Shown here one piece after another: positions 5,801 through 51,369 of a DNA stretch of 64,000 nucleotides. The DNA lies in assembly GCA_965116875.1 (NCBI GenBank), contig OZ220733.1:2560001-2624000 (forward strand), written 5' to 3'. Each line of letters begins with the position of its first letter. Positions within the stretch are counted from its first letter, which is position 1. Under the pieces are notes generated by a model. It had not been told where the DNA came from. It did no database searches and saw only the letters and a list, made by a program, of their open reading frames with translations. This DNA comes from Candidatus Latescibacterota bacterium (lineage in GTDB: Bacteria; Latescibacterota; UBA2968; GCA-2709665). Made by a program: the position numbers and the translations under genes.

Positions 5801-7801
5801 ATGGCGACGTCCAGATGTCTATTGAGCCCTCCCGTACACCGCTGTAAAGGCTTGGCGCACTCCTACTCTATTGGGATCGTATGCATTGCGCTGATATTCT
5901 CTCCGAGGGCAGTGGGGTCCCAGGACGGTTTTTCACTGTCCGCGGACGTTGATGCGACTGCGCGGGACCAGGGTGTGACGACCGCCGAGGTTTCCCCGGA
6001 AACAACTGTTTCAATCCAGGTTTTCGGGAGTAACCTCGGCCCTACCCAGGGCTTGTCCGTTCGATTCGTGTACGATAGCGGTCAGGTCGTGTATGAAGGT
6101 GCGGACGCGGGCGATGTGTATTCCAGCGCCCAGGTTCTTGTAGAAACCGGTACGCACCCGACGTCGGTCACTGTGGGTGTCGCGTCGCCGGGCGGTCGCG
6201 CCTCCGCATCGGCCGGGCTCGTCTGTACAGTCGGCTTTCGCTCGTCGGCTTCGTTTACCGGCACGACGATCCGCATCGTGGAGGCCGTACATGGAGGAGA
6301 CGGCCAACAGGACACCTTGAAGTTGAGCCTCGCCATCAAGTTGGTTCCGGCAACGGAAGGACCGTCTCCGGACTTCGATACAGACGGGACGGTCGGTTTT
6401 CCCGATTTTCTGCTGTTCGCGTCGCATTTTGGATCAACGGCGGGCGAGGGTGACTATGACGCGAGGTTCGACCTGAATGCAGATGGGTCTGTCGGGTTTG
6501 CAGACTTTCTCATGTTTGCGGGACGATTCGGCCAAAGCGTGGCGGTACCGGCGCCGGACCGCGGTCCGCTGGTAGCCCTGTATGACGCGACCCTTGGGTA
6601 CAATTGGACGACACAGACAAACTGGCTGACGGACAATCCCATTTCCACGTGGCACGGCGTCACGGTGCAGGATGGTCGCGTAACCGAGATAACCCTGGTC
6701 CAAAACAACCTTACAGGCTCGATTCCGTCCGAAGTGGGCAATCTTTCCAATCTCAGAGATCTGAAACTTTACCAGAACCAGCTGAGCGGATCGATACCTG
6801 CAGCACTGGGTAATCTCCCCAATCTCGAAGTGCTGCTTCTAGACCAGAACGCGCTCGGTGGGGCGATCCCGCCGGAATTGGGCAACCTGACCGGCCTGAC
6901 AGATCTGGATCTTCAGCAGAACCAGTTGACGGGGCCGATTCCGTCCGAACTGGGCAATCTTCCCAACCTGATCGGTCTGAGACTCTTCCAGAACCAACTG
7001 AGCGGATCGATTCCTGCAGCACTGGGTAATCTACCCAATCTCGAAGTGCTGCTTCTGGACCAGAACGCGCTCGGTGGGACGATCCCGCCGGAATTGGACA
7101 ACCTGTCCGGCCTGACAGTTCTGAATCTTCAGCAGAACCAGTTGACGGGTCCGATCCCGCCGGAATTGGGCAACCTGACCGGCCTGACAGATCTGAATCT
7201 TCAGCAGAACCAGTTGACGGGGCCGATTCCGTCCGAACTGGGCAATCTTTCCAACCTGATCGGTCTGAGACTTTTCCAGAACCAACTGAGCGGATCGATA
7301 CCTGCAGCACTGGGTAATCTACCCAATCTCGAAGAGCTGCTTCTAGACCAGAACACGCTCGGTGGGACGATTCCGCCGGAATTGGGCAACCTGACCGGCC
7401 TGACAGTTCTGAATCTTCAGGAGAACCAGTTGACGGGGCCGATTCCGTCCGAATTGGGCAATCTTTCCAACCTGGCAAGTCTGAATCTTCAGGAGAACCA
7501 GTTGACGGGGCCGATTCCGTCCGAATTGGGCAATCTCTCCAACCTCGAAGTGCTGCAACTTCACCAGAATGGACTCAGTGGATCTGTCCCGACCGAGATT
7601 GGCAACCTGACCCGTATGCAGTTTCTGACGTTCCACGCAACGGATCTGAACGGCGCGCTTCCCCTGAGCCTGACAGCATTGACCGAACTGGGGGGATTCT
7701 TCTTCAGGGGGGACGGAAGTCTTTGCGCGCCGCTGGATACGTCTTTTCAGGCGTGGTTGCAGCTTGTCGAAGCATTCGATGGCCCAAACTGCTCGCAATA
7801 G
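5801..7801 (+). CDS. Secreted protein: cohesin-like domain + dockerin-like double EF-hand + plant-type LRR array
   Basis: Hydrophobic signal region; PDFDTDGTVGFPDF...FDLNADGSVGFADF; LRR N-cap (LVALYDAT...WHGVT); about 13 repeats of 24 aa, LxxLxLxxNQLSGxIPxxLGN. Confidence 0.88.
   Translation: MATSRCLLSPPVHRCKGLAHSYSIGIVCIALIFSPRAVGSQDGFSLSADVDATARDQGVTTAEVSPETTVSIQVFGSNLGPTQGLSVRFVYDSGQVVYEGADAGDVYSSAQVLVETGTHPTSVTVGVASPGGRASASAGLVCTVGFRSSASFTGTTIRIVEAVHGGDGQQDTLKLSLAIKLVPATEGPSPDFDTDGTVGFPDFLLFASHFGSTAGEGDYDARFDLNADGSVGFADFLMFAGRFGQSVAVPAPDRGPLVALYDATLGYNWTTQTNWLTDNPISTWHGVTVQDGRVTEITLVQNNLTGSIPSEVGNLSNLRDLKLYQNQLSGSIPAALGNLPNLEVLLLDQNALGGAIPPELGNLTGLTDLDLQQNQLTGPIPSELGNLPNLIGLRLFQNQLSGSIPAALGNLPNLEVLLLDQNALGGTIPPELDNLSGLTVLNLQQNQLTGPIPPELGNLTGLTDLNLQQNQLTGPIPSELGNLSNLIGLRLFQNQLSGSIPAALGNLPNLEELLLDQNTLGGTIPPELGNLTGLTVLNLQENQLTGPIPSELGNLSNLASLNLQENQLTGPIPSELGNLSNLEVLQLHQNGLSGSVPTEIGNLTRMQFLTFHATDLNGALPLSLTALTELGGFFFRGDGSLCAPLDTSFQAWLQLVEAFDGPNCSQ
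6740..7675 (+). repeat. 72-bp LRR tandem array with higher-order structure ABC-ABCC-ABCC-D-E
   Basis: Near-identical DNA units such as cagaaccagttgacggggccgattccgtccgaa recur; unit classes read from the translation. Confidence 0.9.
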
Positions 7802-7896
7802 ATTCCGCGTGATCCATTGCGTACAAACCACTCGCCCGAGCCGTCGAACACATGAACCACCCGGGCGCATCGAGAAGGTTCGCCGACTGGCTCCGC

Positions 7897-8082
7897 CCAG
7901 CAACGTGGGGTGGGAACTCCGGGTGCGCCCGGACGGCTTCGTCCTCGACCTCGGCGGTGGTCTCACGCTCTCCGGCCCGTCGCGCGGGCTGCAGGCCGAA
8001 ATCAGGGGGCGCGGCCCGCTCTCCCACGAATCAGAGGGCTTCCGTGAACGTGGCTTCTCGGGCTCGCTCGCCTGGTCCCAAG
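7897..8082 (+). pseudogene. Remnant resembling an autotransporter-like beta-barrel segment
   Basis: FVLDLGGGLTLSGPSRGLQAEIRGRGPLSHESEGFRERGFSGSLAW has the amphipathic-strand pattern of that family; no plausible start or full domain. Confidence 0.55.
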
Positions 8083-8456: not shown

Positions 8457-11400
8457 ATGATGCGCCATCTCAATTCATCCACGTCTGCGCCCGGCACTGC
8501 GAGTATGCTGTGTTTGCTGTTTTTCGCGGTTCCTTGGTCGCTGTCCTCGCAGACTGTCGGGTTTTCGCTCTCGTTGGACATGAACGAAGCTGCGGGCGAC
8601 CAATCCGTGTCCTCGCTCGACCTCCTTCCCGATCACCCCTTCTCGATACAAATCTTCGGTGCGGAAATTCAGGACGCCACTGGAATTTCCGCGCGCTTGC
8701 GTTTCGACGCATCCCAGGTCACGTACGAGGGCTTCGACCCGGGTGACGTGCTGCCCGGCGGCCAGGTCGTCGTACAGCAGGATACAACGTCGGTCCAGGT
8801 CGGCGTGTCGACGTTGAGCGGATCGGCATCTGTAAACACCGGCTATGTGGGCACGCTGCGTTTCCGAACGACGGCTGCATTCTCTGATACAGAGATCTGG
8901 CTTGTAGACGCGGCACTTACCCGCGGCGGGCAGACCGAGACGATCTCGCCCGCCATCGGCGTGACGCTGCAGATTGCCGCGGCTCCTTCACCGGACTTCG
9001 ACGGCAACGGCCTGGTGGGTTTTTCCGACTTCGTGGCGTTCGCGGGCAGCTTCGGTTCACAGCGGGGCGATAGTAAGTTTGATGCGAGATACGATCTTAA
9101 CGGCGACGGTGGCATCGGTTTCGACGACTATCTGGTCTTCGCCAGCAGATTCGGCGAAGAGGCCAACCGGGCGCCGGTGTTTGGCGCCGTGCCTCCGGTT
9201 CGGCGTACCGTGGCCGAAAACACGGCGGCCGGTGAACCCATCGGCGACCCTGTGACGGCCACGGACGCCGACGGCGATTCCCTGACGTACCGTCTGCGCG
9301 GCGTACACGCGGACAGCTTTGCCATCGAGGCGGGCACGGGCCAGCTGCTGACAAGAGAGGGGGTTGTCTACGACCACGAGGCCAGGGACGCCTACTCCGT
9401 CACGGTGTGGGCAAGCGACGGTCAGGGGGGCCGCGCCACGATTGTGGTGGGCATCATGGTTACCGACGTGGACGAACCGCCCACCACGGCCCCGGACAGT
9501 GTGGCGGTGGCCTCACTCGACAGCGCCTTATCTGTAACGTGGCTTGCGGCGATGGACGAAGCGGGCAAGCCTCCCGTTAGCGGGTATGAGGTGGGGCACA
9601 AGCAGGCGGAGGCCGAGGCGTGGCCGGAGGAACTGCTGCTGGTGGAAAGGCGCGCGGATACGGGCGTGACGATACCGGGTCTGACCAACGAGCAGGCGTA
9701 TCACGTGCGTGTGCGCACAATGAACGAGGAGGGTGGCAGCCCCTGGTCGGAGACCGTTGCCGGGGCCCCCACGGCGGGTCCGCGGCCCAGGGGCGTGGTC
9801 CGCGACCTGAGGGTGGACGTCGACAGCGTCGCGCAGGTGTACCTGGCCCGCCTGTTCACACGGCCCGCCCTCGGGACGCTGACGTATGACGCGTCGTCGT
9901 CCAACGAGGGGGTGGCCACGGTGACGGTCTCGGATACGCTGGCGGCGGTACGCGGCGTGCGGGCCGGGCGCGCGACCCTCACGGCCACGGCCCGGGACGT
10001 GCACGGCAACAGCGCCCAGACGACCTTCTTCGTCATCGTAACGGGAACGGGGCCGCCACCGGGATCCGGCGGCGGTGGGGGCGCCGGCCCCGTCGGACCG
10101 TTCGTGCCGCCAACGCCGCCTCAGCCACCTCAGCGGCCAACGCCGCCTCAGCCGCCTCAAACGCCAGCGAACAATCGCGCGCCGACGTTCGTCGACGGTT
10201 CGACCACGTCGCGAAGTGTGCCTGAGAACACCCCCGCGCGTCAGCCGATACAGCACCCTGTTCGCGCTACTGATCTCGATCAACACCAGCTAACGTATAC
10301 ACTCTCGGGCCCGGATTCTGAGCGATTTGCCCTGGACACGGATACCGGTCAACTGCGCACGCGGCCGGGCGTGATCTACAACCACGAGGCAGCAGACCAC
10401 CATTCGGTTACGCTTAAGGCCGACGATAGCAACGGCGGCACGGCAACAATTGACGTTACGATCCATGTGACCGACGTAGACGAACCGCCGGCGCGGCCCC
10501 CGGCGCCTCGATTGACGGTCCCGGACACCGGTTCACCAGCAATCATCGTGTCGCCCGACCCAGAACCGCCGGCGAATACAGGACCGAGAATCACGCTCTG
10601 GGAAATACAGCATCGCAGCGGGAATACCGGAGAATTCAACATCTACAACCCGGATCCCGAGCCCGACTGGTCCAAATCCGATTGGGAGGCCACAATCACA
10701 GGCTTGAACAGAGACGCAACCTACGAGGTACAGGTACGCGCGAGAAATGACGAAGGGGAGAGTGGGTGGTCTCCTTCGGCCGAGGCAACGATCTCCAATC
10801 AGTCCCCGATTGCCGAGGGTTCCATCCAGGACATATCGCTTCCGGTGGGTGGTCTCACGGAGATTGTATCCGTGGACGGCACGTTTCGCGATCCCGATGA
10901 CGACGGAATGACCTATACGGCAACGTCGAGCAACGCGGCTGCCGCGTCGGTCAAAGTCATGAATACCAACGTTTTGGTCCAACCCCTGTCCGCGGACACC
11001 GTGGATATTACGGTGACGGCGACCGATCCGTGGGGGGCGTCCGGCTCGACGACGTTTACCGCCAGCGTTCAGGCGCCCGCGCTGTCGGCTCTCACGGTAA
11101 GCATCAGCGGAGACCGCGTCACATTCGAATTCACCGACGATTTCAACGCCAACGAGACCCGGGCATACCGGTTCAGAATCAGGCAGAAGGAGCCGACCGG
11201 TAGTTGGGCGACCGGCTGCTTCACGGAAACCAACGATGAGAATTCCGCGAAGACTGTCATGGTCGCCGTTGAGGATGAGGTCTCCGATTTCTTTATGTCC
11301 GGAACCACATACGAAGCAGACTTTGGATATCTGGGGACGAATTGTAACGCCGACTTGACGGGCGTACGCTCTGCGGCAGCCGAGGCGAGAGCCGCCGGAA

Positions 11401-12275
11401 CATCTTCCTTCGATATCGAGCTTGTCTTTGTCAGCAGTGTCCCCGCAGAATACCGGTCGGCGTTTGAAACTGCCGCGCGGCGCTGGGAGCAGATCATCAT
11501 CGGGGAGGTCCCGAACCATGATCTGTCATCCGCCGCCCGCGCCGTGTTGGAATACCTCTATCCGGGGACCACCTCTCCCACGGTTGTCGACGATCTTTTG
11601 ATCTACGTTGAGACTCCCGCGATTGACGGTGTCGGCGGTGCGCTTGCCGCGGCGAGACGCCTCGTATGGCGGGTCCCGTCGTCCCTTCCCGTCGCAAGCG
11701 GCATCAGACTCGACAGGAACGACCTTGACGCCATGACGGATCAGAAGCGCTCTGCCGTCATTCTTCACGAGATCGGCCATGCGTTGGGATTCGGACTTGA
11801 GTCATGGACGGACCTCAACCTCCTGAAAAATGCGTCTCTCGATAGCGACAACACCCCGATAACGCCCGCCCTCGATACGTATTTCGCGGGTAAAAAGGCG
11901 ATTTCCGCGTTCAATGCGGCGGGAGGATCCACGTACAGCGGCAAAAAAGTCCCGGTAGAGAATTCGGGTGGCGCCGGCAGCCGGGACAGTCACTGGCGGG
12001 AATCCGTATTCGCGAATGAACTCATGACGTCCACCGTGAACAGTAACGTCACGCAGCCACTAAGCGCAATCACGATCCAGTCGTTGGCAGACATAGGCTA
12101 CGGCGTCGACTCATTACAAGCGGATTCGTACACCTTGCCTTCCTCCTCTTCCAAGATTGCAATTGAGTCCGACGGGCTGAACCTGCTCAACTGCGTGGAA
12201 ACGCACCCACTTGCCGGACCCGATGAACCTGATCCCAAAATCCTCAATCTGCGGAAGGCGGGCGGCCACGAATGA
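8457..12275 (+). CDS. Secreted modular protein: cohesin-like, dockerin-like, cadherin, FN3, Ig-like, Pro-rich linker, cadherin, FN3, Ig-like, unknown beta domain, leishmanolysin (M8)-like zinc peptidase
   Basis: Start placed at ATGATG 8457 by similarity to paralog 12802/12805; NRAPVF...ATDADGD cadherin motifs; HEIGHALGF...DSHWRE...NELMT. Confidence 0.88.
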   Translation: MMRHLNSSTSAPGTASMLCLLFFAVPWSLSSQTVGFSLSLDMNEAAGDQSVSSLDLLPDHPFSIQIFGAEIQDATGISARLRFDASQVTYEGFDPGDVLPGGQVVVQQDTTSVQVGVSTLSGSASVNTGYVGTLRFRTTAAFSDTEIWLVDAALTRGGQTETISPAIGVTLQIAAAPSPDFDGNGLVGFSDFVAFAGSFGSQRGDSKFDARYDLNGDGGIGFDDYLVFASRFGEEANRAPVFGAVPPVRRTVAENTAAGEPIGDPVTATDADGDSLTYRLRGVHADSFAIEAGTGQLLTREGVVYDHEARDAYSVTVWASDGQGGRATIVVGIMVTDVDEPPTTAPDSVAVASLDSALSVTWLAAMDEAGKPPVSGYEVGHKQAEAEAWPEELLLVERRADTGVTIPGLTNEQAYHVRVRTMNEEGGSPWSETVAGAPTAGPRPRGVVRDLRVDVDSVAQVYLARLFTRPALGTLTYDASSSNEGVATVTVSDTLAAVRGVRAGRATLTATARDVHGNSAQTTFFVIVTGTGPPPGSGGGGGAGPVGPFVPPTPPQPPQRPTPPQPPQTPANNRAPTFVDGSTTSRSVPENTPARQPIQHPVRATDLDQHQLTYTLSGPDSERFALDTDTGQLRTRPGVIYNHEAADHHSVTLKADDSNGGTATIDVTIHVTDVDEPPARPPAPRLTVPDTGSPAIIVSPDPEPPANTGPRITLWEIQHRSGNTGEFNIYNPDPEPDWSKSDWEATITGLNRDATYEVQVRARNDEGESGWSPSAEATISNQSPIAEGSIQDISLPVGGLTEIVSVDGTFRDPDDDGMTYTATSSNAAAASVKVMNTNVLVQPLSADTVDITVTATDPWGASGSTTFTASVQAPALSALTVSISGDRVTFEFTDDFNANETRAYRFRIRQKEPTGSWATGCFTETNDENSAKTVMVAVEDEVSDFFMSGTTYEADFGYLGTNCNADLTGVRSAAAEARAAGTSSFDIELVFVSSVPAEYRSAFETAARRWEQIIIGEVPNHDLSSAARAVLEYLYPGTTSPTVVDDLLIYVETPAIDGVGGALAAARRLVWRVPSSLPVASGIRLDRNDLDAMTDQKRSAVILHEIGHALGFGLESWTDLNLLKNASLDSDNTPITPALDTYFAGKKAISAFNAAGGSTYSGKKVPVENSGGAGSRDSHWRESVFANELMTSTVNSNVTQPLSAITIQSLADIGYGVDSLQADSYTLPSSSSKIAIESDGLNLLNCVETHPLAGPDEPDPKILNLRKAGGHE

Positions 12276-12804
12276 ATGATGTGGATACCTGCTCTTCGGG
12301 CGCGACCACGGCAGCACCGAATGCGGTCAATCGAATGCGGCGCCCGAAAACGACCGGACACAGTATGCAATGACCATCCGACCAAAACGTCTGTCGCTCA
12401 TTCGCCGATACTGTCTTCCTGAGGAGGCCTCCAGGCCGACGAAGGAACTTCTGCGGCATGGGTTCATCCCAGAGCGTCTGGAATTCGCTCCAACTTAAAA
12501 TGCGGCACGTCCCGTAACTGGGCTGCGCTAAAGAATCATGAGAAAATTTATCGTAGGCATCTTGACCTGTATGGGTTACGCGATTGTTATCGCAATTGTC
12601 TATTTTCTGGCTTGGTGGTTTGTTGGTGGATTTCTCGATAATTGAGCAAAGCACATCCAAAGTTGGAGTTGCCGCGGTCTTATCGGGGGTGTAACGCTTG
12701 CAGGACAAGACCATGTCTTTATATCCCTGACGATAACCGTCGCTCGATTGACCATTCGGTTCACTATTGCCTCTGATTCCACTTATAGCCAGATCGCTTT
12801 CGTG

Positions 12805-13395
12805 ATGCGTCATCACAAATCAACCACGTTGGAGCTTGGTGTTGCGGGTCTTCTATGCCTGTTCGTGCTTCCCTGGCCGCCGTCGACGCAGCCCAGTGGT
12901 TTTTCCCTCACGCTGGACCTGGACGCCGCTGAAGGTGACCAGTCTGTCTCTTCGCTTGACCTCCTTCCCGATCAGCCGTTCTCAATACAAATCTTCGGTG
13001 CGGACATCCAGGGCGCCACCGGATTGTTCGCGCGCATCCGTTTCGACACATCCCAGGTCGCGTACGAGGGCTTCGATGCCGGCGATGCACTGCCCGGCGT
13101 CGATGCCGTCGTACAGCAGGATTCCACGTCCCTCACCGTCGGCGTCTCTTCCCTGAGTGATTCCGCATCGGTGAACGCGGGTCGGATCGGTACGGTGCGC
13201 TTCCGTACCACGGCTTCGTTCTCCGATACAGAGATCTGGCTCATTGACGCGGAGCTTACTCGCGGCGAACAGACTGGGACGATCGCGCCGCTCCAGAGCC
13301 GGTCGAGGAAATCCCGCCACGGCAGGATCAGAATCTGGAAATACCCCTTCGCGGTGGGCGCGCTCACGCAGCATTCCGAGGCAATTGTGTTGTAA
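12805..13395 (+). pseudogene. Truncated paralog (signal peptide + cohesin-like domain), cut just before the dockerin and joined to AAA-gene sequence
   Basis: GFSLTLDLDAAEGDQSVSSLDLLPDQPFSIQIFG...TEIWLIDAELTRG matches genes 8457 and 14278; similarity stops at about 13290. Confidence 0.85.
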
Positions 13396-41300: not shown

Positions 41301-41943
41301 CGACGCTGTTGACAACCTGTCGGCGGGGGCCGCCAGCGCCGATACGATCCGTCTGTTTGCGCCGTCGGATGCCGGGATCTACTACTACGGCGCGTGCGTT
41401 GACGACGTCAGTGGGGAGAGCAATACCAACAACAACTGCTCATCCGGCGTCACCGTCACCGTCAGCGCCAGTGGCGGCGATAGTCTGGTCATAGCCGCGG
41501 GAGCAGAGAAAGAATACACAACGTCCTTTCGTGGTGGTTTCAGTTATGACTCTTTCATAGAGAGCCTTAGATATCGGGCCGTGTCATCGGACATTGACGA
41601 TGGTCTGTTGGGTTTGTCAGACGTTGAGGTGGGAATAAGGTACCAGCAATCCAACTTCGATCCGCAGAGATTTGTAACCGAAGTGACATTTGGATACAAA
41701 CTCGGAGTAAGCTCAACAATACCCCTGGATTCCACACTACGGGCTACAATTGTCTATGCCATCACAAAGCAACCATTCGCACCTGTTCCTGGTACTCGCG
41801 TGGCAACGTATACCGTTTCCATAGTCGTGCTTGTTAGTAACGATGGAAGCATTAGAGGAAATGCAATCCCGGGAGACGTGGAGTCGTTGGAGCACGTCCG
41901 CATGCAGGGTCGTCAGTCTCGAGTTATCCTGGAAGAACGCTGA
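38371..41943 (+). CDS. Secreted protein: cohesin-like, dockerin-like, CARDB, YWTD (LDL-receptor class B) propeller, 3 CARDB, unique C-terminal domain
   Basis: Start placed at MIPYYRNLL by similarity to 45125; six KMYWTD-type repeats; four CARDB units. Confidence 0.9.
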   Translation: MIPYYRNLLFVVVGFLVFGGAALLRADSAADLRPDPISGGKLETGGYDNAPDTMPEYAAKVALGNNANAILSLDLIADGGAGNRRDDGVTTGAVSGRGTTIALEVFATGVTTTLRGLILRFDFDASLVSFVKAENSAFPLSLPEGSVGAGLAATSPVTLAPTGFLARVEFETVADVTGREFSIGIEKVTISESVTSSDELTTTGEITFNATGSPDFDGDDFVGFTDFLIFAGAYGSRQGDGRYNAAQDLDSDGSIDFADFLIFAESYGGPPPSTGGGGSGNPDLVVQSPSVSNGRVSPGAAFTIGATVRNQGNGPSAATTLHYYRSTDATINASDTQVGTDAVNGLAAGNVSAESINLTAPSSSGTYYYGACVDAVSGESITGNNCSPAVSLTVATAPPPPTGTSKLYWTDWGTDKIQRGNLDGSGVEDLVSGAGLKGPDGLALDTAGGKMYWTDAGTNKVQRANLDGSNVEDLVTGLGIPYGLALDVSGGKMYWTNRQTNKIQRADLSGSNVEDLITSGLTFPGGLALDVSGKKMYWTNPGANKIQRSNLDGSGVEDLVTSGIISPTGIALDVSGGKMYWTDRRSDRIQRSNLDGSGVQNLVTSGLRSPNGLALDVSGGKMYWADEETNKVQRANLDGSNVEDLVTGSDGLVDPSSVALETTSGSGGRGPGPGGGGGGRPSADLVVETPSVSNSSPTAGSSLTLSATVRNRGNGPSAATTLRYFSSSDATISASDTEVGTDAVGGLSASGSSAESIALTAPSSAGTYYYGACVDAVSGESDTGNNCSSAMTVNVVAAPVPDLVVDAPTVSNSSPTAGSSLTLSATVRNRGNGPSAATTLRYFSSSDATISASDTEVGTDAVGGLSASGSSAESIALTAPSSAGTYYYGACVDAVSGESATGNNCSPAVTVTVGAAAAPDLVVDAPTVSNSSPTANQSFVLNATVRNQGNGPSVATNLHYYRSTDATITTQDTAVATDAVDNLSAGAASADTIRLFAPSDAGIYYYGACVDDVSGESNTNNNCSSGVTVTVSASGGDSLVIAAGAEKEYTTSFRGGFSYDSFIESLRYRAVSSDIDDGLLGLSDVEVGIRYQQSNFDPQRFVTEVTFGYKLGVSSTIPLDSTLRATIVYAITKQPFAPVPGTRVATYTVSIVVLVSNDGSIRGNAIPGDVESLEHVRMQGRQSRVILEER
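40420..41127 (+). repeat. Tandem 354-bp near-identical CARDB duplication
   Basis: 40420-40773 and 40774-41127 share long identical runs at offset 354. Confidence 0.88.
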
Positions 41944-42194: not shown

Positions 42195-44834
42195 ATGAAA
42201 ACGTTGAACAGGAATCATAGGTGCCATGTCCCTTTCCTGGTTTTGGTCTTGCTCGCCTTCGGGTCACGAGGGGTCGCCTACGGGCAGGGTTCCACGGATG
42301 CAACGCTGAAAGAACTTACAATCGGCCCGGTGGACATTGTGGGCTTTGACAGTGCGGTTACCGGATACCATATCGGCGTCACGTATTCAGTAACGCAGGT
42401 CATTATTACGGCCACCGCGACGGATGCTGGCGCGACCATACAGATAGGTAAGAGTAGAACCGACGTTAGCACGATCGCAAGTGGTTCCGGGCATGTCGTC
42501 CCGTTGGCTGTGGGTCGAAACTCCGTGGGGATACGGGTCACGTCCTCTGACGGAAATACAAGCGAAAACTACACGATCGTAGTGGGCAGAGGCGTTGAGT
42601 CTGCTTTCGGCTGGAATGCTGCAGATGACTTCAACACACTCTACGCCGCAGGAAACCAAAATCCAGGAGACATCTGGTCGGACGGTGAGACGATGTGGGT
42701 GACAGACCAAGTGGACAAGAAAATATACGCCTACAGTATGGAAACTAAGAAACGCGACCTCCCTAAGGACTTGGAAACCTTGGATGCCGCAGGGAATGAT
42801 AGTCCCATTGGAATCTGGTCAGATGGCGAAACCGTGTGGGTAGCGGACAGGCAGGACGGGAAGCTATACGCCTACGATCTTGCCACCAAAGCGAGAAGAT
42901 CTGACAGGGATTTTGACTTTAGCCACCTGTGGGCGATCATACCGACCGGTCTCTGGTCAGATGGGAAGTTTATTTACGTACCGACCTCCGTTTCCGCTTC
43001 TGTCCCACGATTCGACCTGAAAAACGAGGTTTGGGACTACAGCCTGCCAAGTGTAGTTTCCCCGACCGGCCTCTGGTCAGATGGCGAGACTCTGTGGGTC
43101 GCCAACAATTCCCACTATAGACTGCATGCCATTAATCTGGCGACGAATAAGCCGAACCCGGAAAAAGACTTCAACACACTGGATGATGCCCAGGCTTTGG
43201 AACCAGGAGGCATCTGGTCGAATGGTTCCACCATGTGGGTGGTTGCAGGCGCCAAAATATACTCGTTCAATATGCCATCCGGTATAGTTTCCTACGACAG
43301 CGACGGCGACGGGCTGATTGAAATCGGCAGCCTGGCGCAGCTGAACGCCGTCCGATGGGACCTGGACGGCGACGGGGCCGTGGACAACAGTGCGAATGCG
43401 GGTGCTTACGCCCATGCCTTCCCGAATGCCGTCGCCGGTATGGGTTGCCCAAACACGGTAGACGATGCAGATGATAACGACTGCACCGGGTATGAGTTGA
43501 CGGCCGATCTGGACTTCGACACAAACAGCGATGGTACCGTAGACGCGTCCGACACCTACTGGAATGGCGGCGCGAGATGGCTTCCCATCGGGAGTTCCGG
43601 TTCCGGCAACGAATTCGTCTCCACGTTCGAGGGGAATCGGCATACCATTGACAACCTTTATATATACCGCTCGACTTCCACGGTCGGTCTGTTCGGTGTC
43701 GTCGGCGCCCGGGGACAGGTGCGGAACTTAGGGATTCGAAAGGTCGTTTCGGTGGGCGATGACGGGAGCGTCGTTGGTGGGCTTGTGGGGATCAACCGCG
43801 GCGGCATTTCCGGCAGCTATGCGGCGGGGGTGGCATCCGCGGGCGAATCCAGCAGCGTTGGTGTGCTGGTGGGGGCAAACACTGGCACAATTGCCACCAG
43901 CTATGCGACGGGCAAGTCGTATTGCGGAAACGACGGCAACGCGGGTGGGCTGGTGGGGTTGCACGGTAGCAGCGCCGGCAGAAGCATTATCACCGCCAGC
44001 TACGCGACCAGTTTAGTGTCCGGCGCGGACGGAAGCGACCTCGGGGGGCTGGCGGGACAGGTCGCCGTCGTCGGCGGTAGCACCAGATGCATCATCACCG
44101 CCAGCTACGCGACTGGTGTGGTATATGGAGAGAGCGACGGCAACGTCGGTGGACTGGTGGGGCAGACAGCCGCCCTGGGCAACGACTGCAAAGCCATCAT
44201 CACCGCCAGTTACGCGACCGGCGAGGTCTCGGGGGTCGGCAGCAACGTCGGTGGTCTGGTGGGGTACAACCTCAGTGGAGGCCCTGACAGCGGTGGTATC
44301 ATCACCGCCAGCTATGCGACCGGTGCGGTGACCGGCTTGGACCACCGCAATGTCGGCGGGTTCGTGGGAAAAGACTCCACGAATCTGAACAGCATAAACG
44401 CCGTAAGCTACAGCTACTGGAATAACGAGACCTCCGGGCAAATTGCGAGTGACGGCGGCGTTAGCAAGACGACCATCGAGTTGGTGTCGCCGACCGGGTA
44501 CGCTGGCATCTATGCCACCTGGAACCTGGATCTGGACGGTGACAACACGAAGGACGACCCCTGGGAATTCGGCAATTCCAACGAGTATCCGATGCTGCGG
44601 GCCGACTTCGACGGCGACGGCGACATTGACGCGGACGACGTAGACCCGCAGCGGCGGGTCGTCGCGTCCCCTGCAGCATCAACCGATTTCAACGGCGACG
44701 GTACGACCGATTTCGTGGATTTCTTCCTCTTTGCAGACGCGTTTGGCAGTTCCGATGCGCGTTACGATCTCAATGGCGACGGAACGGTGGATTTCATCGA
44801 TTTCTTCAGGTTTGTGGATGCGTTCCGTTCGTAA
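42195..44834 (+). CDS. Secreted protein: cadherin-like beta-sandwich, WSDGET-repeat propeller, GLUG-motif domain, C-terminal dockerin-like domain
   Basis: STDATLKEL; five I/LWSD/NG repeats; repeated VGGLVG...ITASYATG; TDFNGDGTTDFVDF...YDLNGDGTVDFIDF. Confidence 0.88.
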   Translation: MKTLNRNHRCHVPFLVLVLLAFGSRGVAYGQGSTDATLKELTIGPVDIVGFDSAVTGYHIGVTYSVTQVIITATATDAGATIQIGKSRTDVSTIASGSGHVVPLAVGRNSVGIRVTSSDGNTSENYTIVVGRGVESAFGWNAADDFNTLYAAGNQNPGDIWSDGETMWVTDQVDKKIYAYSMETKKRDLPKDLETLDAAGNDSPIGIWSDGETVWVADRQDGKLYAYDLATKARRSDRDFDFSHLWAIIPTGLWSDGKFIYVPTSVSASVPRFDLKNEVWDYSLPSVVSPTGLWSDGETLWVANNSHYRLHAINLATNKPNPEKDFNTLDDAQALEPGGIWSNGSTMWVVAGAKIYSFNMPSGIVSYDSDGDGLIEIGSLAQLNAVRWDLDGDGAVDNSANAGAYAHAFPNAVAGMGCPNTVDDADDNDCTGYELTADLDFDTNSDGTVDASDTYWNGGARWLPIGSSGSGNEFVSTFEGNRHTIDNLYIYRSTSTVGLFGVVGARGQVRNLGIRKVVSVGDDGSVVGGLVGINRGGISGSYAAGVASAGESSSVGVLVGANTGTIATSYATGKSYCGNDGNAGGLVGLHGSSAGRSIITASYATSLVSGADGSDLGGLAGQVAVVGGSTRCIITASYATGVVYGESDGNVGGLVGQTAALGNDCKAIITASYATGEVSGVGSNVGGLVGYNLSGGPDSGGIITASYATGAVTGLDHRNVGGFVGKDSTNLNSINAVSYSYWNNETSGQIASDGGVSKTTIELVSPTGYAGIYATWNLDLDGDNTKDDPWEFGNSNEYPMLRADFDGDGDIDADDVDPQRRVVASPAASTDFNGDGTTDFVDFFLFADAFGSSDARYDLNGDGTVDFIDFFRFVDAFRS

Positions 44835-44875
44835 ATCCGATATAGCTCGATGAAATTCGGGTGCGGCTGCAGAAT

Positions 44876-45124: not shown

Positions 45125-46996
45125 ATGACTCCATTTTATCGCAACTTGCTGTTTGTTGCCATTGGTTTCTTCGTGCTTGCGGGCGTGGCGTTCCTCAGGG
45201 CCGATTCAGACGCGGATATGCCTCCGGGCGCGAAACACGGCGGAGAGTTGGATCCTGGCGCTGAGTACGACGGATTCCGCGTCGCGTTGCCTGAATTCGC
45301 CGCGAAATTCGCCCTGGGCAACAATGCAAACGCGGCATTGTCGCTGGACCTGATCGCTAACGGCGGGGCGGGCAACCAGAGGGATGACGGCGTGACCACA
45401 GGCGCCGTGTCGGGACGCGGTACGAAGATCGCCATCGAGGTTTTCGCGACCGGCGTGAGGACGTCCCTGTTAGGATTCGAAATCGAATTCGACCTTGATT
45501 CTTCTCTTGTGGCCCTTGTGAGGGCAGAAGACAGTATACATCCACAGCTGGGGCGAATCCGAAACAAAAGTGTAGTCGCTTTTGGCTCCCTTCCGCCACG
45601 TTTGTTGTGGTTGTCGCCTTCCGGGTTTCTTGTGCGCGCCGAGTTCGAGACGGTTGCAAACGTTACTGGTCGGGAGTTCTCCATCGGGATCGAGTCTGTT
45701 ACACTCGCGGGAACTTCGTCGTCCATCGACACACTCACGACAAGCAGTGAGATCTCGTTCAACGCCGCGCCGTCCCCCGACTTCGACGGCGACGGGACCG
45801 TGGGGTTTTCCGACTTCCTGATTTTCGCCGGCGCGTTCGGGTCGAGTCAGGGCGATGGGAAGTACAATGCCGCGCAGGACCTGAATTCCGATGGTTCTGT
45901 CGACTTCACGGATTTTCTGATCTTTGCCGGCGATTTTGGCAGTCAGGTCCCGCCCTCCGGCGGCGGTGGGACACCTTCCGGCGGTGGCGAGACTGTGACC
46001 ATTGCGGATGCCAATCTCCGTGCGGTAATAGCAGATAGCCTGGGTAAGGCGCGCAATGCGCCGATAACCCGGGAGGAGATGACGACCTTGACACGTATTG
46101 ACGCGCTCAATAAGGGCATTCGCAATCTGACAGGCCTCGAGCATGCAACCAATCTGCGATGGCTTAACCTTGGTTCCGAGCGCGTGAATGATGCGTGGGT
46201 CAACAGCAACGATATATCTGATCTCTCGCCCCTCGCCAACTTGACTAACCTGAGACTACTGGGACTCGGGAGAAACAGCATCAGCGATATATCAGCACTT
46301 TCCCGTTTGACCAACCTGACATGGATGACTCTATACAAAAACAACATTAGGGATATATCAGCGCTGTCCAACTTGACTAACCTGGAAATACTGTACCTTT
46401 GGGGCAACAGCATCTCGTCTATATCCGCCCTTTCCCGTCTGACGAACCTGATAGAGTTATATATCGGCTCTGTCGACATCTCAGACATTTCGAGTCTATC
46501 CAACTTGACAAATCTGACAGACCTGTTTCTTGACAGAAACAGTATCTCGTCTTTAACTGCGCTCTCTCGTCTGACGAACCTGACAAGGCTGAATCTTTAC
46601 AACAACAGTATCTCGGACATTTCGCCATTGGTGGCAAATACGGGCCTGGGCGATGGAGACAGGGTTGATTTGAGAGACAATCCCTTGAGCAGTACTTCGC
46701 GCAACACGCACATTCCAACTCTTCAGCGACGAGGCGTTAAAGTAGAATTCGACGGTAGCGGCGGTGTGAGAGCGTGTACTGCCGGGTTAGTCGTAAATCC
46801 TGGCGAAAGTTGTACTTATAAAGGAGCGACCTTCTCTGTCAGTTCTTCTGGAACGGGAACCATTATTGCCGGGGGATTGGTAATGAGGTCAGGGCGTGGA
46901 ATTCAGGAGTCGGGCACCATAAATGGCGTACGGTGGAACTTTCATGCCACGAAAAACAGTGGCAGCAACAGTTGGACAATTCACGTAGCGAATTAA
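45125..46996 (+). CDS. Secreted protein: cohesin-like, dockerin-like, internalin/SDS22-type LRR, Cys-rich tip type B
   Basis: SD GGAGG; IADANLR cap; 22-aa ISDISALSxLTNL repeats; ACTAGLVVNPGESCTYKG...SWTIHVAN. Confidence 0.9.
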   Translation: MTPFYRNLLFVAIGFFVLAGVAFLRADSDADMPPGAKHGGELDPGAEYDGFRVALPEFAAKFALGNNANAALSLDLIANGGAGNQRDDGVTTGAVSGRGTKIAIEVFATGVRTSLLGFEIEFDLDSSLVALVRAEDSIHPQLGRIRNKSVVAFGSLPPRLLWLSPSGFLVRAEFETVANVTGREFSIGIESVTLAGTSSSIDTLTTSSEISFNAAPSPDFDGDGTVGFSDFLIFAGAFGSSQGDGKYNAAQDLNSDGSVDFTDFLIFAGDFGSQVPPSGGGGTPSGGGETVTIADANLRAVIADSLGKARNAPITREEMTTLTRIDALNKGIRNLTGLEHATNLRWLNLGSERVNDAWVNSNDISDLSPLANLTNLRLLGLGRNSISDISALSRLTNLTWMTLYKNNIRDISALSNLTNLEILYLWGNSISSISALSRLTNLIELYIGSVDISDISSLSNLTNLTDLFLDRNSISSLTALSRLTNLTRLNLYNNSISDISPLVANTGLGDGDRVDLRDNPLSSTSRNTHIPTLQRRGVKVEFDGSGGVRACTAGLVVNPGESCTYKGATFSVSSSGTGTIIAGGLVMRSGRGIQESGTINGVRWNFHATKNSGSNSWTIHVAN

Positions 46997-47378: not shown

Positions 47379-47433
47379 GTGATGTCGCGATCTGGGACAT
47401 CACAATGCGTTTCGCTGTCGCAAATTGCGACAG
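47379..47433. promoter_or_regulatory. Two adjacent inverted repeats upstream of gene 47691
   Basis: GTGATGTC-N9-GACATCAC (47379-47403) and CTGTCGCAA-A-TTGCGACAG (47415-47433). Confidence 0.45.
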
Positions 47434-47690: not shown

Positions 47691-49850
47691 ATGAAACGTC
47701 CTGTACTTCATCTGTTCCTGTTCGTTTTGCTCGGGTTTTTCTTTGCTCCTTTGTCGTCTGTCCCTGCGTCTTCCCCTCCCGGTGACAGCCTGCATATCTG
47801 CGCCGTCGAGGACTATGAGCTGTTGCGACGTGATCACGAACGCCCCGCGGCGAAGCGGATTGCGAATCTGAACACAGGCGAGCCGCGCACGGTGCGAATG
47901 ATCTACTTCCTGCCAAACGACTGGCCGTACCGCGCCGAAGTGGTGGATTCGATGAAGTCGGTGATCGTGCGGAGTCAGACCTTCTTTCGCGAGCAAATGC
48001 AGGCACACGGCTACGGCGAATCGACCTTCGCCATCGAGACCGATGTCGGGGGCAGACCGTTGGTGCATCGTGTCGACGGCAAGCATCCCTTCAGCCACTA
48101 CGACAACACGCTCGGCATTGCGGTTATCGCCGAGCTTGAACAGATTTTCGATCTGGATGCGAACATCTATTTCATCGTCCTCGGTACCGATGCGCTTCGT
48201 CAGGGAAATGGAGAGCCGGCGGGAGGCGTCGGTCGATGGCGGACGAAAAATGGCGGCAATTTGGTGGTGTCGGATAGGTTTGGTATGTACCTGATAAGTC
48301 ATGAACTTGGTCACGCCTTTGGACTATCCCACGATTTCAGGGATAGTCGTTACCTCATGTCATACGGACCCAGCCGGAACAGGATCCTGTCGTCGTGTGC
48401 CGCGGAGTACCTGGCCGTACATACCTACTTCAATGCAGACAGCCCAACGTTCGAGGGGGTGCCGCCGACGGTAGAACTCTCCTCGCCTGACAGATATAAA
48501 CCCGGGACAACCAGCGTACCCGTTCAACTTCAGGTCGCCGATCCGGACGGTGTACATCAGGTCGTCCTGTTTGGCCGCGGCTTTGGCGGTTTTGAAGTGG
48601 TGGCGTGTCGTGTATTTGACGGGCAGCGCGAAACACTCGTCGATTTCGAGTATACCGGCGCGATACCATCAGTTGACGCATCCAGACTCGCGGACTCTCC
48701 TGCACATACATTGTACATCGAGGCTCTAGACATTCATGGCGACGTGCGAATTGAGGAATACACCCTTGCCGAGATTTCTCCGTCCAACATCGCTACCTGG
48801 AAGGGTCATTCGGATTGGGTTAATTCGGTGTCTTTTTCACCTGATGGAAAAATACTTGCTTCCGGATCTGAAGATCGCACGGTCAAGCTGTGGGACGCTT
48901 CGACCCAGGCGCACGTCGCTACCCTTGAAGCACAATCTGGAGTCGATGCTGTGGCGTTTTCACCCGATGGCGCCACGCTGGCTGTCGATTCGTGGGAAGC
49001 TGTCAAGCTGTGGGACGTGGGGACCCGCGATCTGATCGACACTGTGAAAGGACATAGCAGTTTCATCCTGTCGGTGACGTTTTCACCTGATGGCAAGCTG
49101 CTCGCTTCCGGGTCGGGGGATTTCACGGTCAAGCTGTGGGACGTAAGTACCCGCGATCTGATCGACACCCTGGAAGGACATAGCGTGATGGTAACGACGG
49201 TGTCGTTTTCACCAGATGGAACACTGCTCGCTTCCGGATCTCACGATAACACGGTCAGACTGTGGGACGTGTCAACAAGGCGCAATATTGCCACCCTTGC
49301 GGTTCAGAAATTTGGAGTCTGGTCTGTCGCGTTTTCACCCGACGGGGCAACACTCGCGGTCGCAACCGTCAGTGCGGTCGAATTGTGGGACGTGGCCAGG
49401 AGCGTACGTATCGCTTCGATCGAGGAATCGGGTGGGGTTAATTCGGTCGCTTACTCGCAAGACGGAAGTGTAATCGCTTCCGCAGCTTACGACAGAACGG
49501 TCAAGCTGTGGGACGCCGCGACAAGACGAAATCTCACCACCTTTCCACATACTGCTGTGGTCAATTCAGTTTCGTTTTCATCGGATCGGAGTACCCTCGC
49601 CGCCGGGTTACAAGATGGAACGATCGCTCTGTGGGATGTTGCGCAGTACATCGCCCCGCCAGCACCGGATCCCGACTTCGACGGTGATGGAACGGTGGGA
49701 TTTCCGGATTTCCTGCTGTTTGCGGTTGTTTACGGTCTGAGCCAGGGAGACGCAGGATATGATGAGCGCTTCGATCTGGACGACAACGGATCCATCGGTT
49801 TCAGCGACTTTCTGATCTTTGGGGAAAGCTACGGCAAGAGCACCTCGTAA
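47691..49850 (+). CDS. Secreted metzincin peptidase + WD40 propeller + C-terminal dockerin-like domain
   Basis: Signal peptide MKRPVLHLFLF; HELGHAFGLSH...YLMSY; seven WD40 repeats; PDFDGDGTVGFPDF...FDLDDNGSIGFSDF. Confidence 0.9.
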   Translation: MKRPVLHLFLFVLLGFFFAPLSSVPASSPPGDSLHICAVEDYELLRRDHERPAAKRIANLNTGEPRTVRMIYFLPNDWPYRAEVVDSMKSVIVRSQTFFREQMQAHGYGESTFAIETDVGGRPLVHRVDGKHPFSHYDNTLGIAVIAELEQIFDLDANIYFIVLGTDALRQGNGEPAGGVGRWRTKNGGNLVVSDRFGMYLISHELGHAFGLSHDFRDSRYLMSYGPSRNRILSSCAAEYLAVHTYFNADSPTFEGVPPTVELSSPDRYKPGTTSVPVQLQVADPDGVHQVVLFGRGFGGFEVVACRVFDGQRETLVDFEYTGAIPSVDASRLADSPAHTLYIEALDIHGDVRIEEYTLAEISPSNIATWKGHSDWVNSVSFSPDGKILASGSEDRTVKLWDASTQAHVATLEAQSGVDAVAFSPDGATLAVDSWEAVKLWDVGTRDLIDTVKGHSSFILSVTFSPDGKLLASGSGDFTVKLWDVSTRDLIDTLEGHSVMVTTVSFSPDGTLLASGSHDNTVRLWDVSTRRNIATLAVQKFGVWSVAFSPDGATLAVATVSAVELWDVARSVRIASIEESGGVNSVAYSQDGSVIASAAYDRTVKLWDAATRRNLTTFPHTAVVNSVSFSSDRSTLAAGLQDGTIALWDVAQYIAPPAPDPDFDGDGTVGFPDFLLFAVVYGLSQGDAGYDERFDLDDNGSIGFSDFLIFGESYGKSTS

Positions 49851-49980
49851 AACGAATGGTCCGCATTATCGTGGTTCGCAAGGGCTTGAACGTGCTTCCT
49901 GGACGCGCATATCTGTTTCAACCCGATTCTCCCGGCTGAAGCCGGGCCTCGACCTGCAATTGAACACGGCGGTTTGACCT

Positions 49981-51369
49981 GTGACTCCCTGGAAGCGCAA
50001 AATGTGTTTTGCCGCGCTCGCACTGCTGGCATTCTTGTGCCACGCCGCGACTGGCGTCAGTTCAGACGATGATCGCTGGACGCCTCATGTCATCTCCGTC
50101 GACGCCATGGGCGAGGATACCGCGTCCATTCCCGACTTCGACGGCGACGGCATGATCGCCTTTGGCGACTTTCTGATCTTCGCGGATGTGTACGGTACAC
50201 GTGACGGCGACGACAAATACGACGCCACGTATGATCTGAACGGCGACGGGGCGATCGGATTTTTCGATTTTGTGATCTTCGCGGAGAACTACGGGAAAGA
50301 GGTGGTGGTCGCGCAGGCAATTGTGTCGCTGAAGGTGGAGCCTGCGCGACTGACTCCTGCTCATGCGGGCAAACAAGGCGCCGATACGATCGTAGTCACG
50401 GCCCTGGACGGAGAAGAATCACCGGTCGCGGGCGCCATTTACGGATGGTCAACCGACCGGTACTCCGGCTGGGTGTACCCTGCGCACGGCGTCACGGACC
50501 GCCTGGGTCGTTTACAGACGACCTGGGTGGCGGGCTGGCCGGGAGAGGGCACATTGTCGCTCACCGTGGAGAACGAAAGCTTTCGCGTCACGAAAGAACT
50601 GGCGACGCTTTCCACGACACCGGCCAATCCTCCCGCGGGCGATGCGACCATCTGGATCCACAACCGGAATCACCCCAGCGCGGGTTACTCGATCGACATG
50701 ACCCCGCTGACCGAACCGACGGGTACCTTTTACGCAGCGATCCAGTGGGACGGAGGATACACGGGACTGCAGCGGGGAGGAGACCTTTACGATCGACAGC
50801 TTCAATTCTCGGTGTGGGACGCTCCGGGATTTGGCGATGCGGAACTCATCGAAAGGGCGGGCGACGTCGTGTGCGGGACTTTCGGAGGTGAAGGAACGGG
50901 GGTGAAGTGCAGGTTGGACTATCGATGGACGGTCGAGTCGACATATCGCTTCGAAATTACTGAGGAGGAGATGAACGGGGGCAGTGCGATCACCCTGCAC
51001 GTAACCGATCTCGCGACGGAAAGCAGGCGCTTCGTGGGCACCATACGCTTCGCGAGGCGCGCACGGATGAGGAGCTTCGGGATGTTCGTGGAGGACTTCG
51101 CAACAAGAGCACCGCACTGTCTTGCCCGCGAGGTTCGAAGCGTTGCATTCCGCCGTCCAAGGGCGTGGCTCGACGGCGCCTGGGTCGCGCTCTACGTAAT
51201 GACGCGCGGGACACTTTCCGGGTGGACCAATGACGCTTGGAATCCCGGGACACCGAGATGCGCGAACGTCGCCGCGCGCGAACATACTGCAGGACTTGAA
51301 CTGGTCATTGGAGGAAATACGGCCAGTGACCCCAATGCATCGCCCTACTACATTATACCGGCGAACTGA
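49981..51369 (+). CDS. Secreted protein: N-terminal dockerin-like, Ig-like, DUF3472-like domain
   Basis: Leader and dockerin paralogous to 30815; GGYTGLQ...QFSVWD...FGGEGTG...FVEDF. Confidence 0.82.
   Translation: MTPWKRKMCFAALALLAFLCHAATGVSSDDDRWTPHVISVDAMGEDTASIPDFDGDGMIAFGDFLIFADVYGTRDGDDKYDATYDLNGDGAIGFFDFVIFAENYGKEVVVAQAIVSLKVEPARLTPAHAGKQGADTIVVTALDGEESPVAGAIYGWSTDRYSGWVYPAHGVTDRLGRLQTTWVAGWPGEGTLSLTVENESFRVTKELATLSTTPANPPAGDATIWIHNRNHPSAGYSIDMTPLTEPTGTFYAAIQWDGGYTGLQRGGDLYDRQLQFSVWDAPGFGDAELIERAGDVVCGTFGGEGTGVKCRLDYRWTVESTYRFEITEEEMNGGSAITLHVTDLATESRRFVGTIRFARRARMRSFGMFVEDFATRAPHCLAREVRSVAFRRPRAWLDGAWVALYVMTRGTLSGWTNDAWNPGTPRCANVAAREHTAGLELVIGGNTASDPNASPYYIIPAN

Follow-up and report, generated by a model that had tools for sequence, protein, structure and literature searches.

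A candidate non-cellulolytic cohesin–dockerin display island in a diderm bacterium with a type IX secretion system

Cohesin and dockerin form the best-known natural plug-and-socket pair, and almost all work on them has been done in Gram-positive degraders of cellulose. Two systems outside of that group stand closest to the one described here. A cellulosome-like complex has been proposed from genomes of Candidatus Stygibacter (Cloacimonadota), a member of a group that uses a secretion system of type IX (T9SS; PMC8542988), and the 'planctosome' with M12B and M14 peptidases as cargo has been proposed from genomes of freshwater Planctomycetes (Nemodlikiaceae; PMC6461901). The T9SS moves folded and also very large proteins (PMC9251779). 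This text is about bases 2,560,001-2,624,000 of contig OZ220733.1 of a Candidatus Latescibacterota bacterium, a genome that consists of a single contig of 5.45 Mb with an estimated completeness of 97.7%. This whole 64-kb stretch, termed the window in the following, contains an island of twelve dockerin genes, and the island is probably a cluster of a lineage-wide, non-cellulolytic cohesin–dockerin display system of a diderm bacterium with a T9SS. Its parts fall into three classes: one putative anchor with a cohesin and a T9SS tail, seven proteins in which cohesin and dockerin are fused without a linker and are followed by cargo (CohDoc proteins), and five cargo proteins that have only a dockerin.

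Dockerins, cohesins and the putative anchor of the island

An earlier, sequence-only reading of the window had claimed that twelve co-oriented genes share a duplicated module, and this is borne out. A six-frame scan for an acidic 12-residue calcium loop followed by an F-x-x-F helix start gave 24 matches, which make up 12 pairs. Every pair is on the + strand and inside one of the twelve genes, which are named here by their first window position; elsewhere in the window the scan gave no match. Measured from loop start to loop start, the distance within a pair is 33 residues in 11 modules and 27 residues in that of 42195. The placement is as described before, with the module at the N-terminus in two proteins (30815, 49981), directly behind a beta-sandwich in seven (5801, 8457, 14278, 34159, 35840, 38371, 45125), and at the extreme C-terminus in three (26748, 42195, 47691). 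Identity of the twelve copies to that of 34159 is 52-95%, ten of them belong to one family of direct DNA repeats (D3, identity at least 63%), and the N-termini of all twelve proteins consist of a basic stretch plus a hydrophobic segment. For 8457, 35840, 38371, 47691 and 33196, the start codon of the earlier reading coincides with the Met ahead of a hydrophobic signal-like segment.

With a hidden Markov model (HMM) made from the 12 window modules and run against the 48,962 stop-to-stop open reading frames (ORFs) of the genome, the window modules score with i-E values of 8.5e-16 to 1.9e-29. When all six frames of the genome were searched with the Dockerin_1 profile of Pfam (PF00404, curated cut-off 22.9 bits), seven of the twelve copies matched at E<=0.01, four above and three below the cut-off, and the other five were not listed; in a whole-protein scan five island proteins are listed, two of them above the cut-off. 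In the loop consensus, positions 1, 3, 5 and 12 are D and position 6 is G, and among the 104 dockerin copies of the genome D15, D37 and D48 never vary and D4 hardly does. In an AlphaFold2 (AF2) model of the CohDoc unit of 34159, helices are found at residues 163-172 and 196-205, one after each loop, with a pLDDT of 82-93. All twelve modules have two tandem EF-hand-like calcium loops, each followed by a helix, and judged from motif and model the module is a dockerin, which is what it had been taken for at the outset.

The beta-sandwich stands ahead of the dockerin in seven genes of the window and occurs without dockerin in two (33196, 12748). For the AF2 model of the sandwich of 14278 (pLDDT 82.0), a Foldseek search against the PDB returned cohesins or cohesin-bearing scaffoldin chains at ranks 1-31 of the matches as listed, with E-values of 9e-8 to 1e-5, a probability of 1.0 and a TMq of up to 0.73, and the matches span type I, II and III cohesins as well as non-cellulosomal cohesins of Archaeoglobus and C. 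perfringens. The CohDoc model of 34159 (pLDDT 82.2, pTM 0.70) found cohesins or scaffoldin chains at ranks 1-22 as listed (E 4.9e-7 to 4e-4), the top two being Coh-X-Doc chains of C. thermocellum CipA, 3kcp and 4fl4. Both models have the nine-stranded flattened beta-sandwich (jelly-roll) of cohesins, and going by these models the island sandwich is a cohesin fold; the case that the earlier reading had named as fatal to its view, a sandwich of another fold, has not materialized, as both Foldseek lists are headed by cohesins. Since the modelled structure matches cohesins although the sequence profiles fall short, the identity of the domain can be regarded as settled. Genome paralogues that were collected with the same cohesin HMM, iterated to convergence, exceed the cut-off of the Pfam Cohesin profile (PF00963, 24.1 bits) with 42.2, 26.2 and 26.0 bits.

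A likely surface anchor is encoded by 33196, as the protein combines a signal peptide, a cohesin and a T9SS sorting domain. The C-terminal domain of 33196-34005 scores 32.0 bits with TIGR04183 (cut-off 23 bits), and the genome has matches to the T9SS machinery, with SprA_N at 97.5 bits, above its cut-off, and a PorU-like match at 220.7 bits, below the cut-off of 420. Four paralogues of identical architecture, 56-85% identical to 33196, are encoded elsewhere in the genome; TIGR04183 is above its cut-off in all five small cohesin-only proteins, and four of these five genes for a cohesin with C-terminal sorting domain (cohesin-CTD) have a dockerin gene no more than 1 kb away. The genome has 19 TIGR04183 tails, six of them on cohesin proteins, and only one of the 104 dockerin ORFs carries such a tail, the remaining 103 being without. 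When genome contigs were searched with the anchor alignment, 78 loci were found, 70 of which match little beyond the tail (query residue 141 onward), because the search patterns were derived from the T9SS tail; eight loci reach into the cohesin, with starts between query residues 22 and 121 (L107, L111, L098, L059, L068, L067, L054, L084).

The genes of the island and the two regulator genes next to its sub-clusters are as follows, in window positions:

2930..5344, - strand: hybrid GAF-PAS histidine kinase with receiver and OmpR-type DNA-binding domain, divergent from 5801 (Pfam)
5801..7801, + strand: CohDoc-LRR protein with signal-like N-terminus (Pfam LRR, Dockerin_1 18.1 bits); cohesin 5918-6370 directly fused to dockerin 6362-6541, then LRR (cohesin HMM, dockerin loops)
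8457..12275, + strand: CohDoc with Big_9/fn3/cadherin and a C-terminal M8 (leishmanolysin-type) metallopeptidase (Pfam); cohesin 8535-8993, dockerin 8985-9164 (HMM matches)
12748..13395, + strand: truncated cohesin-only ORF without dockerin (alignment, direct repeat D9, no dockerin loop)
14278..23478, + strand: giant CohDoc protein of 3066 aa with fn3, cadherin, LRR, SWM and a C-terminal M8 metallopeptidase (Pfam)
23645..26128, - strand: second hybrid kinase-regulator of this type, divergent from 26748 (Pfam)
26748..30578, + strand: M60-like (enhancin-type) metallopeptidase with Big_1, WD40 propellers and C-terminal dockerin 30393-30572 (Pfam)
30815..32578, + strand: N-terminal dockerin 30962-31141, LRR, family-less C-terminal half (Pfam, loops)
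33196..34005, + strand: putative anchor with signal peptide, cohesin 33286-33732 and T9SS type A sorting domain (TIGR04183, cohesin HMM)
34159..35586, + strand: CohDoc-CARDB protein with Cys-containing C-terminal tail (Pfam CARDB, Dockerin_1 24.6 bits, AF2 model)
35840..37954, + strand: CohDoc-CARDB protein with family-less C-terminal region (Pfam, loops, cohesin HMM)
38371..41943, + strand: CohDoc with CARDB, six-repeat LDL-receptor class B (YWTD) propeller and three further CARDB (Pfam)
42195..44834, + strand: cadherin-like beta-sandwich, repeat region, GLUG motif and C-terminal short-linker dockerin 44676-44831 (Pfam, loops)
45125..46996, + strand: CohDoc-LRR protein (Pfam LRR_4, Dockerin_1 26.4 bits, cohesin HMM)
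47691..49850, + strand: M12B/reprolysin-like metzincin with motif HELGHAFGLSHD, WD40 propeller and C-terminal dockerin 49665-49844 (Pfam)
49981..51369, + strand: N-terminal dockerin 50125-50304 and DUF3472 (DUF3472 114.1 bits, Dockerin_1 19.7 bits)

The cargo of the island consists of peptidases and repeat proteins, as had been proposed. There are four metallopeptidases (two M8, one M60, one M12-like), accompanied by LRR, WD40, YWTD, CARDB, cadherin, fn3, GLUG and DUF3472. Peptidase_M8 scores 48.3 bits in the whole protein 8457 and 51.2 bits when the C-terminal part is scanned alone; 26748 has, in addition to WD40, Peptidase_M60 with 238.9 bits and M60-like_N with 78.5 bits; 38371 has CARDB with 152.9 and Ldl_recept_b with 150.9 bits, and Reprolysin_5 in 47691 reaches 28.7 bits (cut-off 27). 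Pfam scans covered the 14 island proteins and also the parts left unassigned in them, and no glycoside-hydrolase family came up; among those parts, the C-terminal half of 30815, the middle of 42195 and the tails of 34159, 35840 and 45125 matched no family. A paralogue of the giant protein 14278, 3029 aa long, is encoded elsewhere in the genome (L027). The ORF 12748-13395 copies the 5' part of 14278 and 8457 that encodes signal peptide and cohesin, with about 70% amino acid identity, and stops after the cohesin; it is likely a gene fragment, either a pseudogene or a remnant of recombination.

Some further observations concern the DNA of the island and its surroundings. The DNA of the C-terminal tail of 34159 (35416-35588) recurs with 83-85% identity at 37990-38162 and 47032-47204, where it lies out of frame just past the stop codons of 35840 and 45125. 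These two genes use another tail than 34159, and both tail types begin at a common 'LGACR.GLVV' junction; the out-of-frame copies look like leftovers from an exchange of alternative C-terminal cassettes. The two hybrid kinase-regulators are 53% identical and each is divergent from one sub-cluster, and they are tied to the island by their position only. Scans for promoters and terminators in 32400-52000 gave 8 and 17 sites, which is at chance level (6.0 ± 2.3 and 18.2 ± 4.9 in shuffled sequence). At 54724-59083, the window has a sulfatase gene on the - strand, followed by two adjoining genes of the PhyH (phytanoyl-CoA dioxygenase) family that carry long family-less N-terminal extensions.

The system in the genome and across the phylum

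The HMM search of the genome found 104 ORFs with a full dockerin in about ten clusters. The earlier reading had seen a plug-in surface complex in the island, and of this the dockerins and the cohesins have been found, while 33196 adds with its T9SS sorting domain the surface anchor that such a complex requires; but a self-contained complex the island is not, being one of those about ten clusters. The dockerin is C-terminal in 57 of the ORFs, N-terminal in 28, placed behind a cohesin in 16 and internal in 3. Cohesins are much fewer, with 24 domains in 23 ORFs, of which 17 also have a dockerin, five are cohesin-CTD anchors and one is the truncated ORF of the window. In 16 of the 17 two-module ORFs the cohesin abuts the dockerin without any linker, at a 'PSP' junction where the gap measures -3 to +5 residues. 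Each cohesin protein of the window has a single cohesin, and the maximum in the genome is two.

The cargo of the 104 ORFs comprises 27 WD40 proteins, nine peptidases (three M8, one M60, one M12-like, one M10, one M4, two S8), seven proteins of the FGE-sulfatase type, four glycoside hydrolases (GH5, two GH12, one GH113-like) and three heparinase II/III-like proteins; the others are LRR, YWTD, FG-GAP, NHL or Ig-type repeat proteins or have no family. For the 92 dockerin ORFs outside the window, Pfam was applied at E<=1e-5 to 64 and at E<=1e-8 to 28. The earlier statement that no glycoside hydrolase is recognisable holds for the island (0/12), and it nearly holds for the system as a whole, which elsewhere in the genome includes the four glycoside hydrolases and the three heparinase-like proteins.

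Two further groups of dockerin genes lie elsewhere in the genome. At G000:C1:145283-171793 (L001, L002), eleven tandem genes on the same strand encode WD40 propellers with a terminal dockerin, one of them being a fragment of 176 aa. Seven FGE-sulfatase (SUMF1-like) proteins have an N-terminal dockerin, at G000:C1:2034602-2055298 (L022, L023), L004 and L010:1-2448, and four of the seven genes stand in a row; such sulfatase-maturase-like domains are unexpected as secreted dockerin-tagged proteins.

The system is found throughout the order. Dockerin matches at E<=1e-6 were counted in 31 genomes from two families and six genera of the order, and all 31 have them, 36-119 each. A sample of 101 genomes of the phylum, each at least 85% complete, contains 41 genomes of the order, and all 41 have at least 33 dockerin matches and 7-24 T9SS tails; in this sample, a dockerin count of 63 in a genome means at least 63 and a tail count of 51 at least 51. 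Within the class, the two genomes of family f4 have 45 and 62 dockerins with 14 and 29 tails, and the 34 genomes of family f3 have 1-32 dockerins with 21 to at least 51 tails, 21 of these 34 genomes being at 51 or more. In the rest of the phylum there are 0-28 dockerin matches, and none in ten genomes. Five genomes, counted without these two limits, illustrate the range:

G007, same genus: 22 T9SS tails, 111 dockerins
G019, same order: 10 T9SS tails, 58 dockerins
G062, same class: 87 T9SS tails, 18 dockerins
G036, same phylum: at least 150 T9SS tails, 1 dockerin
G034, same phylum: 101 T9SS tails, 0 dockerins

Cohesin matches in five genomes other than the one studied here follow the order of the dockerins with 30, 8, 4, 1 and 0. 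Small cohesin ORFs of 280-281 aa in a congener and in the sister family coincide with T9SS-tail matches. The dockerin-rich clades are poor in T9SS tails, having 7-29 matches where the others mostly have 50 or more.

The same cargo body can be found with either tag. From G062, 34 tail-bearing ORFs were taken and the 28 with consistent frames were scanned; among the tail-bearing ORFs are proteins of the FG-GAP/ASPIC, PD40, LRR, Kelch, M6 and S8 types as well as two that combine cohesin, dockerin and tail. An S8 subtilase with FG-GAP has 1314 aa and ends in a dockerin in the genome studied here, whereas its counterpart in G062 has 1360 aa and ends in a T9SS tail; the alignment is collinear over 1179 columns with 37% identity and stops short of the tags. 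A pair of FG-GAP/ASPIC proteins with 29% identity differs in the same way. A third pair, of PD40 proteins with 27% identity, was not accepted as decisive, as its alignment is driven by the repeats, and the M60 domain could not serve as a probe for tag exchange, as it occurs in 17 of the 101 genomes, almost all of them within the order, and thus has no distant orthologue. The sole M60 match outside the order (G097:C1:4528618-4529790, family f3) is 81% identical to 26748, which exceeds the matches in the sister family of the order (about 70%) and therefore suggests horizontal transfer or contamination of the bin. Two G062 proteins combine both tags, namely L139 and L149, with the architectures LRR, dockerin and tail, and cohesin-cohesin-dockerin-tail; judging from their architecture, they may be intermediates between the two modes of tagging.

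Assembly, export and competing explanations

If the island belongs to a display system as we consider probable, the anchor would be exported and fixed on the outer surface by the T9SS, and the dockerins would bind cohesins in a calcium-dependent manner, by which dockerin-only proteins would plug into the anchors or into free cohesins of CohDoc proteins. The latter would act as monovalent adaptors, and a head-to-tail chaining could be possible. A multivalent scaffoldin of the cellulosome type is not present in the window, as no window protein exceeds one cohesin. The cell surface would then be coated with zinc metallopeptidases (M8, M60, M12-like) and with repeats that bind proteins (LRR, WD40, YWTD, cadherin, fn3, CARDB), and the coat would likely have a role in the adhesion to and the breakdown of proteinaceous or glycoprotein material. 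The label 'host-protein-like' that the binding modules had been given was a guess from the repeat types alone. Among the exported proteins of the order, the dockerin seems to have replaced the cis T9SS tail as the standard tag.

Several points weigh against such a display system. The pairing of cohesins and dockerins in the island is a predicted interaction, derived from sequence and models; a complex prediction of the 33196 cohesin with the 26748 dockerin, run without controls, scored 0.03 relative to a mark of 0.32 and counts neither way. The window cohesins are all under the Pfam Cohesin threshold, the best being 14278 with 18.1 bits. A sequence-profile search of the PDB with the nine window cohesins returned three sequences, all of them cohesins and all non-significant (E 0.12-0.46). 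Neither a secretin (E<=1e-5) nor the pseudopilin T2SSG of the type II secretion system (T2SS; E<=1e-3) has a match in the genome, these two being the only families searched, and both were found in control genomes; the roughly 100 dockerin proteins have N-termini of the Sec type and are presumed to be extracellular, and with 103 of 104 dockerin ORFs tail-less and no secretin or pseudopilin match, the step by which they would reach an outer-surface anchor is unaccounted for. The hydrophobic N-terminal segments of four proteins of the 34159 type have 17-19 residues and could be membrane anchors instead of cleaved signal peptides, in which case these proteins would be periplasmic. The contrast between dockerins and tails has no statistical weight, because it reflects one or two transitions at the level of clades, and the exchanged tags, two clear cases out of three, are examples and not a rate, because the pairs were chosen by architecture. 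Finally, no RNA run that contains 33000-37000 is listed, and two runs of unknown kind contain 0.98 and 0.97 of the sampled words.

A first alternative concerns the export step, with the dockerin as an export signal that would act in trans. Dockerin proteins would bind cohesin-CTD carriers already in the periplasm and cross the SprA translocon in a folded state, and the cohesin-CTD protein would be a carrier first and an anchor second, with the same cohesin then tethering the cargo on the surface. The numbers of 104 dockerin ORFs and 19 T9SS tails with six tails on cohesins, the missing secretin and T2SS pseudopilin matches in a 97.7% complete single-contig genome, the reciprocal counts of dockerins and tails across the phylum sample and the cargo body that bears a dockerin here and a tail in a relative are all in line with this idea, as is the transport of folded and very large proteins by the T9SS (PMC9251779). 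However, carrier and cargo, the latter of up to 3066 aa, would have to cross at the same time, outer-membrane routes other than those of the secretin and T2SSG families are possible, and the counts fit a surface capture after another export step equally well; furthermore, no case of piggyback or hitch-hiking transport through the T9SS was found in the literature, as far as the text available to the search reaches. Such a co-transport is thus considered unlikely, but if true it would be the first adaptor-mediated secretion through the T9SS, with a signal in trans.

Two other alternatives do without anchoring. The dockerin-like unit could be a stand-alone module for calcium binding, for stabilisation or for binding of carbohydrate or lipopolysaccharide (LPS), with the cohesin fold as an Ig-like spacer, and the shared modules would then come from common descent of secreted proteins without any assembly. 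The scores below the Pfam threshold and the excess of 104 dockerins over 24 cohesins would agree with that, and non-cellulosomal dockerins of unknown role are reportedly widespread, as Peer et al. are said to have described in 2009. But cellulosome producers, too, as a rule have more dockerins than cohesins, the counts of both domains co-vary across genomes, four of the five cohesin-CTD genes adjoin dockerin genes, and members of the same cohesin family do exceed the Pfam cut-off with the scores given above, which makes this explanation improbable. It is even harder to believe in a self-association, in which the dockerin of a CohDoc protein folds onto its own cohesin, or in which modules are swapped between proteins so that dimers or polymers of cargo arise. 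The abutting modules in 16 of 17 ORFs with their linker-less 'PSP' junction suggest it, and the CohDoc model, with both modules confident and a pTM of 0.70, would be compatible with a fixed mutual arrangement; it leaves, however, 88 dockerin ORFs unexplained (87 without cohesin and one with the dockerin apart from the cohesin), and also the five cohesin-CTD proteins that have no dockerin.

A display system with cohesin anchors would be of interest beyond this genome. Throughout an order of uncultured diderms, about 100 genes of each genome encode proteins with a dockerin tag, which are mainly WD40, LRR, YWTD and sulfatase-maturase-like proteins and zinc peptidases, whereas T9SS tails number only about 20 per genome, a third of them on cohesins. 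Provided that binding occurs as predicted, the outer membrane would be dressed in a modular and regulated manner that has displaced the usual T9SS tagging. There is also the testable question of how proteins without a tail get across the outer membrane. Being short and conserved, the anchor and the dockerin could serve as orthogonal display parts in hosts with a T9SS.

Comparison with described systems

In the strict sense, a cellulosome has several cohesins together with carbohydrate-binding modules (CBMs) and a cargo that is dominated by glycoside hydrolases. The island does not qualify, as no CBM was above threshold in its Pfam scan and as glycoside hydrolases make up 0/12 of the window cargo and four, plus three heparinase-like proteins, of the 104 genome-wide. 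The clostridial cellulosomes, with their type I cohesin-dockerin pairs and single-cohesin anchors such as OlpA and OlpC (PDB 3ul4, 4dh2, both among the structural matches), nevertheless share with the island the cohesin fold, the duplicated dockerin and the logic of anchor, adaptor and cargo. Their hosts are monoderm, the anchoring is by SLH domains or sortase, the scaffoldins are multivalent with CBMs and the cargo is mostly glycoside hydrolases, whereas here the bacterium is diderm, the anchor has a T9SS tail, window proteins have at most one cohesin and the window cargo has no glycoside hydrolase. From the side of secretion, the substrates of the T9SS with a type A sorting domain in cis (TIGR04183) are alike in their Sec signals, in their cargo of subtilase with FG-GAP, FG-GAP/ASPIC, propellers and LRR, and in their presumed destination at the surface, but here 103 of the 104 dockerin ORFs are tail-less and the tail is on separate small cohesin proteins.

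Closer are the two systems that were named at the beginning. Stygibacter (PMC8542988) also has C-terminal dockerins on peptidases (S8, C25) and a cohesin protein with a conserved C-terminal domain for surface attachment; its scaffoldin of 3755 aa, however, bears CBMs along with cohesins in tandem, and its cargo includes GH18 and GH57, while the system described here has anchors of about 270 aa with one cohesin, fused CohDoc adaptors, a cargo of mostly repeat proteins and metallopeptidases, and about 100 dockerins per genome, some of which are N-terminal. The planctosome (PMC6461901) is likewise non-cellulolytic, has zinc metallopeptidases including M12B reprolysin-like ones as cargo, and has an adaptor with dockerin and cohesin. 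It differs by its anchor with a lamin-tail domain, by the lack of a T9SS, by its phylum and by its handful of components, and a fused CohDoc is not part of it as described.

None of the papers listed links dockerins with sponge, WD40 and LRR, and papers that join dockerin and Latescibacteria were found only on fungal microbiomes. The general idea is not new, since T9SS-anchored (PMC8542988) and peptidase-bearing (PMC6461901) systems have already been proposed. What differs here is the scale, with about 100 dockerins per genome throughout an order, together with the monovalent anchors and the linker-less N-terminal CohDoc adaptor, as well as the cargo, in which eukaryote-type repeats and zinc peptidases dominate. 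A further difference is that T9SS tails in cis have been lost reciprocally, for which cargo bodies with exchanged tags are examples.

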